Shown here: positions 5,089 through 24,460 of the stretch, piece after piece
How positions within the stretch are numbered: the first letter of the stretch is position 1
Layout: the number at the start of each line of letters is the position of its first letter
Assembly: GCA_934086315.1 (NCBI GenBank)
Contig: CAKOHZ010000001.1
Location: 472,737 to 536,736 of the forward strand
DNA length: 64,000 nucleotides
Direction: 5' to 3'
Source of the DNA: an uncultured Bacilli bacterium
GTDB taxonomy: Bacteria > Bacillota_I > Bacilli_A > RF39 > UBA660
Notes under the pieces: generated by a model
The model's database searches: none
Told to the model about the DNA's origin: nothing
The model's input: the letters and a program-made list of their open reading frames with translations, nothing else
Translations under genes and position numbers: made by a program

Positions 5089-6012
5089 ATGGATTCTAAA
5101 AAAGCAATAAATGAATATAAAAAACTTTTAGATGATAACTCAAAATATACTCTAACAGGTCAAATGGATATAGTTAGTAATGAAGAACTTTATCATTACG
5201 ATGTTAAAGTAGATTATATGGAAGGAGACTATTATAAAGCATCGTTAACTAACAAAGATAATAGCCATGAACAAATAATATTAAAGAATAAAGACGGAGT
5301 TTATGTCGTAACACCATCACTTAATAAAAGTTTTAAATTTCAAAGTGAATGGCCATATAACAGTAGTCAAGCATATATCTTAACATCTTTATTAAAAGAC
5401 CTAGAAAATGATTCAAATGTTATTTTAGAAGAAAATGAAGACAAATATATCTTATCTTCATCAGTAAATTATCCAAATAATAGTGCACTTATAAGTCAAA
5501 AAATAGTATTCAACAAAGACATGAATCCAGAAGAAGTAAATGTATTTAATAAAGATGGAGTTGCTAATATAACATTTAAAATATCTAAAATAGATTTTAA
5601 ACCTGACTTCAAAGAAGATTATTTCAATGTAGAAAGTAATGCAGATGAAGAATGTTGTAAAGACGTAAGCAAGATTGACGAAATAGTTTATCCAATGTAC
5701 TTGCCAACTGGTACAAAATTCAAAAGTGAAGAAACTGTTAAGTCAAAAGATTCAGAAAGAGTAATACTAACATTCACTGGTGATAAATCGTTTATCTTAA
5801 TAGAAGAAGCATCAAAAGCACCAAAAGATTTTGAAGTAACAAGTGTGTCCGGAGAACTAGTATTTTATGAAAATGTCTTAGGTACACTAACTGGCTCATC
5901 TCTAAATTGGAATATGAATGGAAAAGATTACTACATCATAGGTGAAAACCTAACGAACGAAGAGCTTCTTAAAGTGGCATCTTCAACATCAGTAGTATCT
6001 CTAACAAAATAG
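5089..6012 (+). CDS. Secreted lipoprotein, LolA-like/DUF4367-like fold, unknown function (true start probably upstream at a non-canonical codon, see findings)
   Basis: 307 aa ORF. The in-frame upstream stretch encodes KKVILLLVSCFLLVGC (lipobox) preceded by a strong SD GGGGG. Confidence 0.6.
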   Translation: MDSKKAINEYKKLLDDNSKYTLTGQMDIVSNEELYHYDVKVDYMEGDYYKASLTNKDNSHEQIILKNKDGVYVVTPSLNKSFKFQSEWPYNSSQAYILTSLLKDLENDSNVILEENEDKYILSSSVNYPNNSALISQKIVFNKDMNPEEVNVFNKDGVANITFKISKIDFKPDFKEDYFNVESNADEECCKDVSKIDEIVYPMYLPTGTKFKSEETVKSKDSERVILTFTGDKSFILIEEASKAPKDFEVTSVSGELVFYENVLGTLTGSSLNWNMNGKDYYIIGENLTNEELLKVASSTSVVSLTK

Positions 6013-6035
6013 TATTAGGAAACTAATACTTTTTA
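6009..6035 (+). terminator. Terminator hairpin, copy 1 of a 25-bp direct repeat
   Basis: agtattag-gaaa-ctaatact + ttttt. It recurs at 7000-7027. Confidence 0.6.
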
Positions 6036-6095
6036 AATGCAATTTGAAGTATTTTATAAAGTTTTATCTAACTATAATATTAGGAGGATAAAATA

Positions 6096-6314
6096 ATGAA
6101 AAATGAAATAGTATTATTTGAAAATCAAAAGGTAAAATTAGAAGTTAATATGAAGGATGAAACAGTATGGTTAAATCGTGAACAACTAGCCAAACTGTTT
6201 GATAGAGATATTAAAACAATAGGAAAACATATTAATAATGTTTTAAAAGAAGAACTAGATAGTTCAGCTGTCACAAAATTTGCGACAGTTCAAAAAGAAG
6301 GAAATAGAAAATAA
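6096..6314 (+). pseudogene. N-terminal fragment (72 aa) of a RhuM-family virulence/Fic-associated protein; remainder deleted
   Basis: IVLFENQKVKLEVNMKDETVWLNREQLAKLFDRDIKTIGKHINNV...VQKEGNRK aligns to the first ~70 residues of RhuM-family proteins (~330 aa). A stop follows immediately and no continuation is found in any frame. Confidence 0.55.
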
Positions 6315-6496
6315 TACATTAGTAGCAATAACCCTTTTAGTAGCAGAGTCTAATCCAAAAGAAAAAAGAAATATTAATTGATTTAATTATTAACTTCCTA
6401 ACAAAATAAAAATATAAGAATATATATGTTTAATTTTTAAGTATACTAGTGCACACGACTTAAACTATGGTATAATCAGCGTAGAGGTGAAGATAA

Positions 6497-6922
6497 ATGA
6501 AACCAGGTTTAGGTGTAGGAGTAATGGTATTAAAAGAAAGTAAAATATTGCTAGGATTAAGAAATCCAAACAAAGAAAAAGCAAGTAGTGAACTACAAGG
6601 TCAAGGAACATGGACTATGCCTGGTGGAAAAGTAGAATTCATGGAAAAATTAGTTGAAGCAGCAAAAAGAGAACTAGAAGAAGAAACAAGTTTAAAAGCA
6701 ACAAAACTAGATTTATTATGTATATCAGATGACATGACAGATACTGCACATTATGTTACTGTTGGATTTATAGCAAGAGAATACACTGGAGAAGCAAAAG
6801 CAATGGAGCCAGAAACAATATTAGAATGGAAATGGTTTGATTTAAATGATTTACCAACTAATTTATATAATCCAAGTAAGAAATGCATCGAAAAATATAA
6901 AGAAGGCATAATTTATGAATAA
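6497..6922 (+). CDS. NUDIX hydrolase
   Basis: Nudix box GGKVEFMEKLVEAAKRELEEETSL. Own extended -10 promoter (tgGTATAAT) and SD. Confidence 0.8.
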   Translation: MKPGLGVGVMVLKESKILLGLRNPNKEKASSELQGQGTWTMPGGKVEFMEKLVEAAKRELEEETSLKATKLDLLCISDDMTDTAHYVTVGFIAREYTGEAKAMEPETILEWKWFDLNDLPTNLYNPSKKCIEKYKEGIIYE

Positions 6923-6999
6923 TCATAAATATTAATGTACATAGCACAAAAAAACATAAATTCAATTTAGTAATAAAATAATTTTATAATAGAATAACA

Positions 7000-7027
7000 A
7001 TAGTATTAGGAAACTAATGCTTTTTTT
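7000..7027 (+). terminator. Terminator hairpin, copy 2 of the 25-bp direct repeat
   Basis: agtattag-gaaa-ctaatgct + ttttttt, one mismatch relative to copy 1. Confidence 0.55.
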
Positions 7028-7068: not shown

Positions 7069-7569
7069 ATGAAAGAAAAGATAAAGTATACGTTGATTGT
7101 ATTATTATTTATTTTTGTAGTTTTAACTTGTTCATTATATTATCTTTTTAATAATTTCACAGTTAGAGGAAATGCTGATATTAAAAAGAAATACTATGAT
7201 ATCAAGTTTAGTAATGTAACAATAGATTATGAAACTGATATGACAGTAAAACTAGATAGTGATAATAACACAATAACAGTCAAAGTACCTGACTTAAATA
7301 AGTTTAGAAAAACAAATTCATTTAGTATAGATGTAACAAACATAGGAAATATAAATGCTAAAATAACAAACTTATACATAGAAAATATATTCGCAAATAT
7401 TGATACCAAGAATGTAAATTTAGACATATCTTTAGATAAAAATGACATCATTGAAGGTGGCAAAACAGAAAAGTTAAATATAAGAATAACGTATAATGGT
7501 AAAGATGTAATAGAACAACCATACTATGAATTTAGTATAAAATACATTTTTGATGAAGTAATTCTTTAA
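7069..7569 (+). CDS. Membrane-anchored protein of unknown function upstream of ftsA
   Basis: 166 aa with one N-terminal TM helix and an Asn/Ile-rich extracytoplasmic part. It occupies the position usually held by ftsQ/divIB-like genes but has no detectable similarity. Confidence 0.45.
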   Translation: MKEKIKYTLIVLLFIFVVLTCSLYYLFNNFTVRGNADIKKKYYDIKFSNVTIDYETDMTVKLDSDNNTITVKVPDLNKFRKTNSFSIDVTNIGNINAKITNLYIENIFANIDTKNVNLDISLDKNDIIEGGKTEKLNIRITYNGKDVIEQPYYEFSIKYIFDEVIL

Positions 7570-7616
7570 AAAAAGAATTTTTTTTGATATAATGATAATT
7601 GATTATAGGAGGATAC

Positions 7617-8852
7617 ATGAAAGAAATAATATCAAGTTTAGATATTGGTAGTTCTACAGTTAAGTTAGTAGTAGGCGAAGTGTACGAAAACGATGTACAC
7701 GTTCTTGCTGTATCTGAAGTAAAATCAAAAGGAGTTAAAAAAGGTATTATAGTAAACCCAGAAGAAACATTAATATCATTAAAAGAAGTATTCAATAGAT
7801 GCGAAGAAATGTTAAATATAAGAATAAATAAAGTAGTATTAACAATTCCATCATACTATGCAGAATTCACTATGGTAGAAGGAAAAATAAATATTAAAAG
7901 TGAAGACTCTATAGTAACAGGAAATGATATAGTAAAAGTACTTCAATCTTGTGTTTACAATAAAGTACCAAATAATAAAGAATTTGTTTCAATTATGCCT
8001 ATAGAATTTATGCTTGATGATGAAGAGAAAACAAAAGATCCAAAAGGAAAACAAGCAAAAGTATTAAGATGTAAAGCAGTAATGAGTTTAGCTCCTAAAA
8101 AGAATGTATATGCTGCAGTATCCCTACTTGATAGTATAGGAGTAGGAATCGTAGATATAAACTTTGGAAGTGTAGCTGATTACTACGAATTCAAAAATAA
8201 AACATTAGATTCAAAAAATGTAGCAGTAGTAAACATAGGAGAAGAAAAAACAGAAGTAAGCATTTTCAAAAAAGGAATATTAATAGACACAGAAAATATT
8301 GAAGTAGGCGGCAAAAATATCGATAGAGACATTTGTTACATATATGATATAAGTAGAAAGCAAGCAAAAGAATTGAAAGAGAAATTTGCACTTGCTAGTA
8401 AGAGAAATGCATCAACTAGTTGGAGTGAAGATGTGTTGACAAACTCTAAAGAAAATATTAAAATAAATCAATATGAGATTAGTGAGATAATATGTTCTAG
8501 AATTAAAGAGCTATTAGACCTTACTAAAAAGCAAATAAACCTCTTAACAAAGTTGGAAATTAGTTATATAATATTTACAGGGGGAACAACTGAAGTTAAT
8601 GATTTTAACTTAGTAGTTGATGAAGTATTTGGAAGAGAAATGGAAAGATACCATGTTAATGAGATTGGATGTAGAAGCAATAAATATTCAAGTTCATTAG
8701 GGCTTATCAAATATTATCATGATAAATTAGCTTTTAGAAATAAACTTGCATATACAGTTGATGAGGATTTGCAAGAAGAATTAATTAATATAAAGAAAAC
8801 TAACAATAATACAGTACTCGGAAAAATATATGGATATTTTTTCAACGATTAA
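7617..8852 (+). CDS. ftsA: Cell division protein FtsA
   Basis: MKEIISSLDIGSSTVKLVVGE..., actin-like ATPase motifs. ATG at 7617 lies 5 nt after AGGAGG. The track start at 7599 is a TTG overlapping the SD. Confidence 0.9.
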   Translation: MKEIISSLDIGSSTVKLVVGEVYENDVHVLAVSEVKSKGVKKGIIVNPEETLISLKEVFNRCEEMLNIRINKVVLTIPSYYAEFTMVEGKINIKSEDSIVTGNDIVKVLQSCVYNKVPNNKEFVSIMPIEFMLDDEEKTKDPKGKQAKVLRCKAVMSLAPKKNVYAAVSLLDSIGVGIVDINFGSVADYYEFKNKTLDSKNVAVVNIGEEKTEVSIFKKGILIDTENIEVGGKNIDRDICYIYDISRKQAKELKEKFALASKRNASTSWSEDVLTNSKENIKINQYEISEIICSRIKELLDLTKKQINLLTKLEISYIIFTGGTTEVNDFNLVVDEVFGREMERYHVNEIGCRSNKYSSSLGLIKYYHDKLAFRNKLAYTVDEDLQEELINIKKTNNNTVLGKIYGYFFND

Positions 8853-8862
8853 GGAGTGAAAT

Positions 8863-9921
8863 ATGAATAATAAACTAGAGATGGATCAAATAGCTGACAT
8901 TAAAGTTATCGGTGTCGGTGGCGGTGGATGTAATGCTGTAAACAGAATGATAGATTCAGGACTTCGTGGAGTTGAATTTATCGTAGCAAATACTGATCAA
9001 CAAGTATTAAATGTTTCTCATGCAGAACACAAAATACAATTAGGTAAAACTATTACTAAAGGAAGAGGAGCTGGAACAAGACCAGAAGTAGGAAGAGAAG
9101 CTGCACTTGAAGCTAAAGAAGAAATTGAAGATTCTTTACGCGGAGCAGATATGGTATTCGTAACTTGTGGACTTGGTGGTGGTACTGGTACAGGTGCTGC
9201 TCCAGTAGTTGCTGAAATAGCTCAAAACTTAGGATGCTTAACAGTAGCTATAGTTACAAAACCATTCAAATTTGAAGGTAAGAAAAGAATGGATTATGCT
9301 TTAGTAGGTTTAGATGAACTTAGAAAACATGTAGACACTATCGTAGTAATTCCAAACGATAAATTAAGAGACTTAATAGATAGAAGTACACCATTAAATG
9401 CTGCATTTAAAGAAGTAGATAATGTACTTAGATTAGGTGTTCAATCTATATCTGACCTAATTAGTGTTCCAGGACTTGTAAACTTAGACTTTGCAGATGT
9501 TAGAACTATAATGGAAGATAGAGGAGACGCACTTATTGGTATAGGTGTTGGATTTGGTGATAATAGAGCAGTAGAAGCTGCAAAACAAGCTGTAAATAGC
9601 CCATTACTTGAACAAACTATTAATGGAGCAACAGATTGTATCGTAAATATCACTGGTGGTAACTCAATGACATTATTTGAAGCAGAAGATGCTGTGGAGG
9701 TAGTAAGAGCAGTTGCTAACACAGATGTTAACATTATATTCGGTGCAGTTATCAATGAAGCACTTACTGATGAAATAGTAGTAACAGTAATCGCAACAGG
9801 ATTTGAAGATTCAACTGAACCACTATATAGATCAATTGAAGGAGAAAAGAAAGCAATTCAAGAAATAGATGATGATGAAGAACTTGAAATGCCAGCATTC
9901 CTAAGAAATAGAGATTTCTAA
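8863..9921 (+). CDS. ftsZ: Cell division GTPase FtsZ
   Basis: [17 protein letters not shown] tubulin signature, 352 aa. Confidence 0.95.
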
Positions 9922-16014: not shown

Positions 16015-16090
16015 TGGTGACCCGTACGGGATTTGAACCCATAAATGCACGCGTGAAAGGCGTGTGTGTTAACCGTTTCACCAACGGGCC
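16015..16090 (-). tRNA. tRNA-Glu (anticodon UUC)
   Basis: Reverse complement GGCCCGTTGGTGAAACGG...CACGC-CTTTCAC-GCGTG...GGGTTCAAATCCC...CCA folds as a cloverleaf with TTC in the anticodon loop. Confidence 0.8.
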
Positions 16091-16099
16091 ATTTATTAA

Positions 16100-16175
16100 T
16101 GGTGGGCCTGAATGGACTTGAACCATCGACCTTTCGCTTATCAGACGAACGCTCTAACCAGCTGAGCTACAGGCC
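16100..16175 (-). tRNA. tRNA-Ile (anticodon GAU)
   Basis: Reverse complement GGGCCTGTAGCTCAGCTGGTTAGAGCG-TTCGT-CTGATAA-GCGAA...GGTTCAAGTCC...CCA. Confidence 0.8.
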
Positions 16176-16336
16176 CATATCGCCACTTAATCGGCTGACT
16201 ACTTAATAATACAGTATTTTTTGCAATAATGCAACACTTTTTTTACAAAAATATCAATATTTTTAATAAATTTTATAAAATATTGCAAAAATAGTGCATT
16301 TATTGTATCATTATATATGAAAATAGGAGGAAAATT

Positions 16337-24240: not shown

Positions 24241-24254
24241 TGACGCATAAATCT

Positions 24255-24460
24255 TTGAAGTGGAGAAGTAATATATAGATGTTTTAAAGAGAGTTAGTGG
24301 CTGGTGAAAACTAATAAAACTATATATATGAATAACACCACTGAGTGGAACATTGAAATTCTAGTAAATGTTCTCGGTTAATCCGTTATAAAAATAAAGT
24401 TAATAAGAGGGATGGTACCGTCTATTTTTAGACTCCTTGTACTATCTCTCTTTTTTTGAA
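24255..24460 (+). ncRNA. T-box riboswitch leader (probable Asn specifier AAC)
   Basis: Stem I AGAGAG...GGTGAAAA elements, specifier-loop AUAACA, conserved T-box sequence agagGGATGGTACCGtc, and terminator gatggtac...gtactatc + T-tract directly upstream of asnS. Confidence 0.75.

Follow-up and report, generated by a model that had tools for sequence, protein, structure and literature searches.

A segment of about 1 kb, at positions 6035-6998 of a 64,000-nucleotide (nt) stretch of DNA from an uncultured, low-GC gut Bacilli bacterium (contig CAKOHZ010000001.1, positions 472,737 to 536,736; called here the window), lies between two nearly identical hairpins directly behind a conserved gene for a LolA/GerS-like lipoprotein. 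We give a probability of about 55% to the reading that this segment is an old, decaying accessory islet in an insertion hotspot behind the lipoprotein terminator, and that it entered by crossover at the hairpin. Comparison with related loci shows that the site, which lies upstream of p166, ftsA, and ftsZ, has been used repeatedly and independently, and that the islet begins and ends at the repeats. Ancestrally it carried a RhuM/Fic-DOC gene and a Nudix gene, and its right end holds what is left of a second, older RhuM gene. All window features described below between 5089 and 7569 lie on the plus strand.

The direct repeat, AATAGTATTAGGAAACTAAT[A/G]CTTTTT, occupies 6008-6034 and 6999-7025; its copies are 27 nt long and 96% identical, and the sole mismatch is an A at 6028 in the left copy versus a G at 7019 in the right copy. 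An earlier reading of this DNA from its letters alone (the sequence-only reading) had placed a 25-bp repeat at 6009-6035 and 7000-7027; the one-base difference that it noted stands, but the repeat is 26 to 27 nt long and its ends lie 1 to 2 nt away from those given. Folding agreed with that reading in finding an 8-bp stem, a GAAA loop, and a T-tract in each copy. In the left, attL-like copy the stem is formed by 6011-6018 and 6023-6030, with the loop at 6019-6022 and five T residues at 6030-6034; in the right, attR-like copy the stem is formed by 7002-7009 and 7014-7021, with the loop at 7010-7013 and seven T residues at 7021-7027, and the G at 7019 makes one G-U pair. The folding z-scores of the two copies are -3.0 and -3.9, and the bare hairpin has a free energy of about -7.9 kcal/mol. 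With up to three mismatches allowed, the repeat was found twice in the window and not once in 100 dinucleotide-preserving shuffles. The pair is also the only high-identity direct repeat in the window, low-complexity sequence apart, that is at least 22 nt long and spaced by less than 8 kb, and a search of all 64 kb for further terminator-duplication pairs found none.

To place the islet among its relatives, we assembled 73 loci, about 60 of which contain the lipoprotein gene and about 50 of which cover the site. The related genomes are metagenome-assembled genomes deposited as uncultured Bacilli, Mollicutes, or Clostridium sp. CAG:1000, and the contigs that encode an identical lipoprotein come from human gut metagenomes. 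The site is empty in 11 loci (lipoprotein identity, 70-82%), which have one hairpin, with p166 beginning 77-110 nt further on; in the window's species an empty-site junction would be expected to read CTCTAACAAAATAGTATTAGGAAACTAATGCTTTTTTTCTATATTTATG. The flank 3' of the right copy in the window is colinear with the hairpin-to-p166 spacer of these relatives. In lineage B (L010, L012, L031, L035, and L070; ~98%), a full-length RhuM/Fic-DOC gene of 311-314 codons and the Nudix gene lie between the same two hairpins. Lineage B' (L011, L062-L064, and L071; 96.7% for L011 and L062-L064) has in addition a degenerate second RhuM gene, RhuM_b, between Nudix and the right hairpin. Lineage C, to which the window belongs together with L001-L007, L009, and L030 (99.7-100%), resembles B but has an internal RhuM deletion. 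In lineage E (L057, L058, and L060; 95%), an independent, larger deletion has removed nearly all of RhuM and has left Nudix and both hairpins in place; L059 adds an insertion sequence (IS). Other cargo occupies the site in lineage D (L013-L017 and L032-L034; 93%), which has one or two genes encoding a type IV pilin N terminus and a PT-HINT domain; in L040 (74%), which has a 1069-amino-acid (aa) Flg_new/metallo-beta-lactamase protein and no repeat; and in L043 and L041 (71%), where a Bro-N protein gene lies within a 37-nt, 92% identical direct repeat containing that species' hairpin. In five further loci (74-76%), p166 is missing entirely.

In a neighbour-joining tree of the LolA and FtsA proteins, lineages B, B', C, and E form one clade with D as its sister, at least five empty-site lineages branch as successive outgroups, and L043 is sister to an empty-site locus. 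Because the filled loci are thus placed within empty lineages, cargo gain is the parsimonious direction of change, and on the most parsimonious account, terminator-duplicating gains happened independently at least twice. The alignment with relatives therefore revealed the indel polymorphism that an island insertion, as proposed in the sequence-only reading, predicts: 11 loci have an empty site with a single hairpin, and the filled loci are one clade nested inside empty lineages. A recombination hotspot, which that reading had offered as the alternative, is also real, since the site holds at least five different contents.

The left repeat begins within the target gene itself. The lipoprotein open reading frame (ORF; 5089-6012) gives weak matches to LolA (E = 0.004) and GerS (E = 1.5e-5), and its stop codon, TAG (6010-6012), falls inside the left copy. 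The in-frame translation ahead of the listed ATG, KKVILLLVSCFLLVGC, supplies a signal peptide and a lipobox, so that the true start of the gene probably lies about 50 nt further upstream. In every orthologue a hairpin and T-tract stand right behind the stop codon, several of them with different stems, and the sequence-only claim of a duplicated host terminator is upheld by this and by compensatory changes. Among the 8+4+8 variants of the hairpin, the fraction of cells that pair is 98.8%, and compensatory double changes occur at two pairs; the pairing value was reached by 31 of 500 shuffles, so that the covariation support is modest. Overall, structure rather than sequence is conserved among the orthologous loci, as expected of a terminator, and both window copies show the stem-loop with adjoining T-tract that characterizes intrinsic terminators, the left one overlapping a stop codon. 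The hairpins at the two ends of the islet are both copies of the host gene's terminator. We predict that the left copy is the intrinsic terminator of the lipoprotein gene and that the right copy terminates the Nudix transcript. The T-tract of the left copy is reduced to five T residues, versus about nine in empty-site relatives. Both copies are unchanged across lineages B and C, while adjacent synonymous sites have diverged by 0.3-0.45; in the more diverged E loci (L057-L060), the left copy is kept and the right copy has one T-tract change. This invariance fits selection acting on both hairpins.

At its left end, the islet starts with the RhuM upstream region (6035-6095), which runs from AAATGCAATTTGAAG... 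to a ribosome-binding site (RBS), AGGAGG. A frameshifted 72-aa ORF follows (6096-6314); it is the N-terminal part of a RhuM/Fic-DOC gene and corresponds to residues 1-72 of the 311-314-aa alleles in L010-L012, with which it shares 79-90% identity. The 8-mer AATAGAAA at 6303-6310 is a deletion junction: it sits at gene positions 208 and 840 of the full-length allele in L070, and the intervening 632 bp are gone in the window. The loss of RhuM is a microhomology deletion between these two AATAGAAA repeats and, because 632 bp is not a multiple of 3, it caused the frameshift that left the 72-aa ORF and an out-of-frame 3' segment (6311-6409). In a tblastn search with residues 279-314, this segment was recognized as codons ~280-314; it ends ...LIDLIINFLTK, and the original RhuM stop codon lies at 6407-6409. 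The sequence-only reading had listed a truncated RhuM fragment, an AT-rich spacer, and a Nudix gene as the only contents of the segment. All three are present, together with the out-of-frame RhuM 3' segment and the RhuM_b remnant that it missed, and the fragment is indeed a remnant, produced by internal deletion rather than by simple truncation.

The 72-aa ORF has no significant match in Pfam or NCBIfam and lacks the Fic part, and it is best annotated as a pseudogene remnant. Full-length alleles, by comparison, match PF13310 (E = 4e-26), Fic (E = 3e-10), and PADLOC PDC-S23 (E = 2e-120), and their version of the Fic motif HxFxDGNKR reads HIYIDGNKR, so that RhuM and Fic features are both present. 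RhuM/Fic-DOC is a candidate defence gene; a literature search on RhuM as a defence gene found nothing specific. The alleles at this site are mosaic, with protein differences of up to about 16-24%. Elsewhere (L065-L069 and L073), RhuM pairs with a downstream flavodoxin-like gene, not with Nudix, and a search for flanking repeats around RhuM in these other contexts found none; RhuM is therefore not generally a hairpin-bounded cassette. The flavodoxin-like gene is itself internally deleted in L067-L069, another case of rapid decay beside RhuM.

The Nudix gene (6497-6922) is intact, encodes 141 aa, and matches PF00293 above the cut-off (E = 3.9e-19). Its Nudix box, GKVEFMEKLVEAAKRELEEETSL, retains REx2EE and, compared with the consensus GX5EX7REUXEEXGU, has the penultimate G replaced by S, which places the protein in the Nudix family; scores against all NCBIfam equivalog models, which would have named a substrate, were below cut-offs. 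Upstream, at 6410-6496, we read from the sequence an extended -10-like element, TGGTATAAT (6468-6476), and an RBS, GAGGTG; a promoter scan of this region was negative. Nudix is intact in all filled RhuM/Nudix loci, with dN/dS (the ratio of nonsynonymous to synonymous divergence) at 0.03-0.09, and is kept by purifying selection. Homologues in other low-GC genomes (L048-L056) stand in varied contexts and are 86-90% identical in aa sequence and 84-87% in nt sequence. Most of those sampled (L049 and L051-L055) adjoin large serine recombinases or a transposase-associated gene, usually with a 170-aa ORF downstream of Nudix. The upstream region accompanies Nudix into these other contexts: the homology consists of the gene and up to ~110 nt of upstream sequence (as seen in L057). 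We considered RhuM and Nudix as an obligate functional pair and rejected the idea, given that Nudix occurs elsewhere without a RhuM neighbour and outlasts the loss of RhuM. With Nudix found elsewhere without RhuM, and RhuM elsewhere with flavodoxin, the two genes are therefore independent cargo.

Abutting the right repeat, about 20 nt (6979-6998) are what remains of the 3' end of RhuM_b. Weak when taken alone, this match is 91-95% identical to the corresponding stretch in L011 and L057, which runs on into a clear RhuM pseudogene. In L011 and L071, RhuM_b matches the RhuM 3' end (E = 7e-19) and includes a stretch across the same AATAGAAA junction; in L057, 52 nt match codons 53-70 at 92% and 24 nt match the last codons, also at 92%. 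A 30-aa ORF after Nudix in L057, considered as a possible remnant of the 170-aa gene, proved to be this second-RhuM remnant. In all filled loci of the window's clade, the 3' end of a RhuM gene precedes the right hairpin, and in L011 and L071 the intact RhuM gene stands beside the target gene and the decayed copy is distal. RhuM alleles at the site end ...NFITK* (CTAACAAAATAA), resembling the end of the lipoprotein, ...SLTK* (CTAACAAAATAG), whereas RhuM elsewhere ends ...NFLN*. We read these similar ends as a possible trace of recombination at the original right junction.

A further arrangement bears on how the islet moved. At L073 4830-5010, upstream of the RhuM gene of a RhuM-flavodoxin pair and in an unrelated context, we found in order a RhuM remnant, ATAGAATAATAATAG, a degenerate hairpin, five T residues, AAATGCTATTTGAAG..., and the RhuM start. 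Here ATAGAATAATAATAG corresponds to ATAGAATAACAATAG, which precedes the right copy in the window, and AAATGCTATTTGAAG... corresponds to the window from 6035 onward; the hairpin, ATAGAATTAAAAAACTGATACTTTTT, matches at 22 of 26 positions. Over 172 nt, the stretch shares 87% identity with a modelled circle junction of the islet (predicted to read ...AATTTTATAATAGAATAACAATAGTATTAGGAAACTAATACTTTTTAAATGCAATTTGAAG), and BLAST homology between L073 and the islet starts exactly at window position 6008, the first base of the left repeat. Judged from sequence, this permuted order would imply that the islet was once circular, or tandem, through hairpin-hairpin crossover and then recombined with a resident RhuM gene.

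The islet has been in place for a long time. Between the window and L010 or L011, divergence at synonymous sites (dS) is 0.30-0.42 for Nudix, 0.40-0.45 for the lipoprotein gene, and 0.29-0.30 for ftsA. Islet dS is thus similar to flank dS, so that the islet is old and not the product of a recent mobile event. Its base composition shows no GC anomaly.

The mechanism that we favour would begin with a circular DNA carrying one hairpin copy, which would have crossed over with the chromosomal terminator in a Campbell-type event and so generated the attL- and attR-like repeats. The recombinase may have been supplied in trans, or may have been lost, as in a cis-mobilizable-like element, or host homologous recombination may have acted on the 27-37 bp of identity. 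After integration, the left copy would end the lipoprotein transcript with its T-tract cut to five T residues, and the right copy would end the Nudix transcript and restore the original terminator-promoter context of the division cluster, which may therefore be why such insertions are tolerated here. All four junctions of a Campbell-type integration are represented, namely an attB-like empty site, the attL- and attR-like copies in the window, and the attP-like junction in L073. Two features differ from such integration as usually described: the attP-like sequence in L073 is a degenerate chromosomal relic at another locus, and the islet is only 1.0-1.8 kb long.

Several observations weigh against crossover at a terminator hairpin. 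No integrase, transposase, or relaxase was found in or beside the islet in the roughly 50 loci that cover the site. Termination at both hairpins is itself a prediction, for stems that hold only two G-C pairs, and a consensus terminator scan flagged neither of them, because it demands at least three. The permuted junction in L073 could stem from tandem duplication instead of a circle. As to activity of the repeats, that junction and the tandem RhuM genes of L011 and L071 were seen, and no free circle or present-day empty site was seen among the sampled loci; a search of the 10 loci sampled from the window's own species found each of them filled, with no empty site and no different occupant, and so gave no sign of present-day mobility. 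Exact-pattern scans of IMG/VR viral contigs with the 26-mer hairpin and with the left end of the islet gave no match. Phage and plasmid searches returned only distant relatives, at most 41% identical in aa sequence for Nudix and at most 51% for RhuM, with 65-73% nt identity over short stretches on Bacteroides plasmids; the only viral RhuM relative found is 50% identical. The sequence-only reading had treated RhuM as phage or island cargo, and the islet part of that description holds, but searches of known phages and plasmids found no close relative of the cargo, and a recent origin from either is not supported. The duplication is also uneven between cases: the repeat is 27 nt long in one independent case and 37 nt in the other, in the pilin-Hint cassettes the left and right hairpins have only the stem base in common and show no clean duplication, and L040 has different hairpins on the two sides of its gene with no direct repeat.

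The main rival, to which we give a real but clearly smaller share of belief, needs no recombinase: a single illegitimate event would have inserted foreign DNA at the terminator and duplicated the 27-37 nt that surround the hairpin, by microhomology-mediated template switching at a replication-stalling hairpin or by repair of a staggered break. The repeats would then be a scar resembling a target-site duplication, and later exchange between RhuM paralogues and unequal crossing-over would account for the tandem and permuted forms. That no recombinase is encoded at any locus speaks for it, as do the unequal repeat lengths, the mosaic RhuM alleles, and the 632-bp deletion between 8-nt repeats, which shows that microhomology rearrangement is active here. 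The likeness between NFITK* and SLTK* suggests fusion or microhomology at the original right junction, and the cargo ORF of L043 likewise runs into duplicated host sequence. On the other hand, two independent cargoes both duplicate the whole hairpin, with the left junction right after the fifth T, which is more site-specific than random joining predicts; the differences between the L043 copies, three in one cluster, suggest two partner sites that were not identical rather than a fresh duplication; and the L073 junction is most simply a circle product. Crossover at the hairpin remains our preferred reading. A bolder extension of it, which we regard as rather improbable, is that the terminator hairpin is a dedicated attachment site for defence-type cassettes of one or two genes that lack a recombinase (RhuM/Fic-DOC, Bro-N, and perhaps pilin-Hint) and that would circularize and integrate by crossover inside the hairpin with a recombinase encoded elsewhere in the genome, as a minimal integron- or CIME-like system of uncultured gut Bacilli (CIME, cis-mobilizable element).

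The remaining alternatives deny that the repeats record an insertion of this kind. If the two-hairpin cargo were ancestral, empty sites would have arisen by repeated precise deletion, and recombination between the copies would indeed leave exactly one hairpin, as empty sites have. This reversed polarity is nevertheless quite unlikely: at least five successive outgroup lineages are empty, no kind of cargo occurs in more than one clade, the cargoes (RhuM/Nudix, pilin-Hint, Bro-N, and the 1069-aa repeat protein) are mutually unrelated, and RhuM or Nudix scars were not seen in the empty sites. Less likely again is that the 26-mer is a dispersed terminator, or an element of the repetitive extragenic palindrome (REP) type, or that two independent terminators merely look alike, so that the pair would say nothing about insertion. 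Similar small terminators are abundant in AT-rich genomes, but the shuffles yielded no match, the identity reaches past the stem into AATAG and the T-tract, and other terminators in the window differ. Moreover, in 665 kb made up of the window and related loci, the 26-mer occurs at this site only, with one additional degenerate copy at the RhuM junction of L073. The sequence-only reading had named a common genome-wide element as the observation that would overturn it, and no such dispersal was found in these 665 kb; elements of the REP or bacterial interspersed mosaic element (BIME) type have many dispersed copies, whereas here there are two in 64 kb. Finally, the metagenomic source of the contig brings to mind an assembly artefact that duplicated a segment; with the arrangement and the same A/G difference recurring in over 20 contigs that different studies assembled independently, with different assemblers, we consider this barely conceivable.

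Among described systems, the closest analogue of the islet is the CIMEs of streptococci, integrative elements sited at gene 3' ends that have decayed, keeping attL and attR but losing their recombination and transfer genes; surveyed examples are 1.2-13 kb long and can be cargo-only (PMC5704250, PMC7563491). Like them, the islet is a small cargo-only segment between direct repeats that restore the 3' end of a conserved gene, and it has no integrase or transfer genes of its own, since its repeats enclose only the RhuM remnant and Nudix. Composite integrated elements built by accretion are reported to have their most decayed unit at the greatest distance from the target gene (PMC7563491), and the order in L011 and L071, with intact RhuM proximal and the decayed copy distal, matches this rule. 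The islet differs in that its repeat is the terminator hairpin of the target gene itself. We have not filed it as a CIME because derivation from an integrase-bearing element, either an integrative and conjugative element or an integrative and mobilizable element, found no support: neither an integrase-bearing relative nor remnants of recombination or conjugation genes turned up in the roughly 50 site loci or in scans of viral contigs, bearing in mind that contigs often break at mobile elements.

Other systems share single features with the islet. Group IIC introns insert right after the stem-loop and T-tract of a terminator (PMC1702495). The islet likewise sits behind the stem-loop and T-tract of an intrinsic terminator, but it has neither intron RNA structure nor reverse transcriptase, and no intron family of Rfam matched in the window. 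We know of no description of IIC introns duplicating the terminator. Integron cassettes resemble the islet in being units of one or two genes that lie between hairpin-forming sites and accumulate at a single position, the newer unit proximal. In contrast to such cassettes, the islet genes have upstream signals of their own (the RhuM RBS and the -10-like box of Nudix) and are bounded by a plain terminator stem, not attC; neither IntI nor attI was seen, and no integrase was called in any locus. Transposons and IS elements fit no better, in that the islet shows no transposase, no terminal inverted repeats at its ends, and a duplication that varies between 27 and 37 nt. As in defence and accessory hotspots, one intergenic site holds differing genes (the RhuM/Fic-DOC PDC-S23 candidate, Bro-N, and pilin-Hint) that undergo rapid decay and mosaicism; here, however, the insertions are tiny, with one or two genes, they lie beside a division cluster, and two occupants show precise duplication of the upstream terminator.

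What is less ordinary about this site is that different cargo lacking a recombinase has repeatedly been inserted with duplication of the terminator, and that a circular or tandem relic accompanies it; otherwise it is a fairly ordinary insertion hotspot beside cell division genes. It offers a clean natural series, from the empty site to the intact two-gene islet and on to two independent stages of decay, together with unrelated cargo and a permuted junction. Accessory genes, candidate defence genes among them, have been gained here with no disturbance to the neighbouring essential division genes, and the predicted reason is that the insertion leaves a second copy of the upstream terminator. Of the two cargo genes, the candidate defence gene was quickly lost, and the hitch-hiking Nudix enzyme became a conserved resident, which should be treated as a functional gene in annotation. 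More generally, such exchanges can take place physically at terminator hairpins. If the hairpin were indeed a dedicated attachment site, each incoming gene would gain a ready-made terminator, and if a recombinase acting in trans used it, it would constitute a new and very small cassette platform.

The other occupants of the site are diverse. The cargo of lineage D (L013 6999-8192; also L014, L032, and L034) encodes a prepilin-type N-terminal methylation motif and a C-terminal PT-HINT/intein-like domain, and its alleles are highly divergent (55-96%). In L033 (6001-8436), two pilin-Hint genes stand in tandem with a hairpin after each, and their first 300 nt are 96% identical. The 1069-aa protein of L040 (1443-4652) combines seven Listeria-Bacteroides (Flg_new) repeats with a metallo-beta-lactamase domain. 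In L043 (977-2006; also L041 5913-6127), the Bro-N domain protein has 284 aa, the stop codon of its ORF lies inside the 37-nt repeat, and the three differences between the repeat copies cluster in the 3' arm. L059 carries, at 1572-2735 on the minus strand, a gene for a 387-aa HTH_38 transposase-like protein between the RhuM scar and the Nudix promoter; this insertion is bracketed by a duplication of ~15 nt (CAATTTTAAACTATA) and, unlike the islet, is a genuine IS. In L016, the contig stops 84 nt past the lipoprotein stop codon, in unrelated sequence (6940-7005) with two small hairpins (GTTTGACC..GGTCAAAC and CTACCTGC..GCAGGTAAG); this sequence has no match in the other loci or in IMG/VR viral contigs, and it may be the edge of a larger mobile element that broke the assembly.

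To the right of the islet, p166 (7069-7569) encodes a membrane-anchored 166-aa protein that matched no known family, and it is followed by ftsA (7599-8852) and ftsZ (8863-9921). In a whole sub-clade (L023-L025, L038, and L046), p166 is absent and the lipoprotein gene is followed directly by ftsA. Where it is present, p166 diverges much faster than its neighbours, with 88-92% aa identity where ftsA has 97-98%, and p166 may itself be an older accessory insertion. Neither p166 nor a 513-aa protein encoded after ftsZ proved to be a relative of the pilin-Hint cargo when considered as such. A 23-nt, 96% identical, A/T-rich direct repeat, AGAAA[A/T]GTTAAATATAAGAATAA, links the 3' part of p166 (7467-7489) with the 5' part of ftsA (7805-7827) and is probably a chance match.

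Elsewhere in the window, the gene for ribosomal protein L11 (3301-3918) has an ORF of 205 aa in which the Pfam domains end at residue 142, leaving an acidic C-terminal extension of ~60 aa; the protein is called as 202 aa in related loci. At the gathering threshold, the only Rfam matches in the window are a T-box leader (117 bits) at 24246-24440 and two tRNA genes at 16018-16176 (minus strand).

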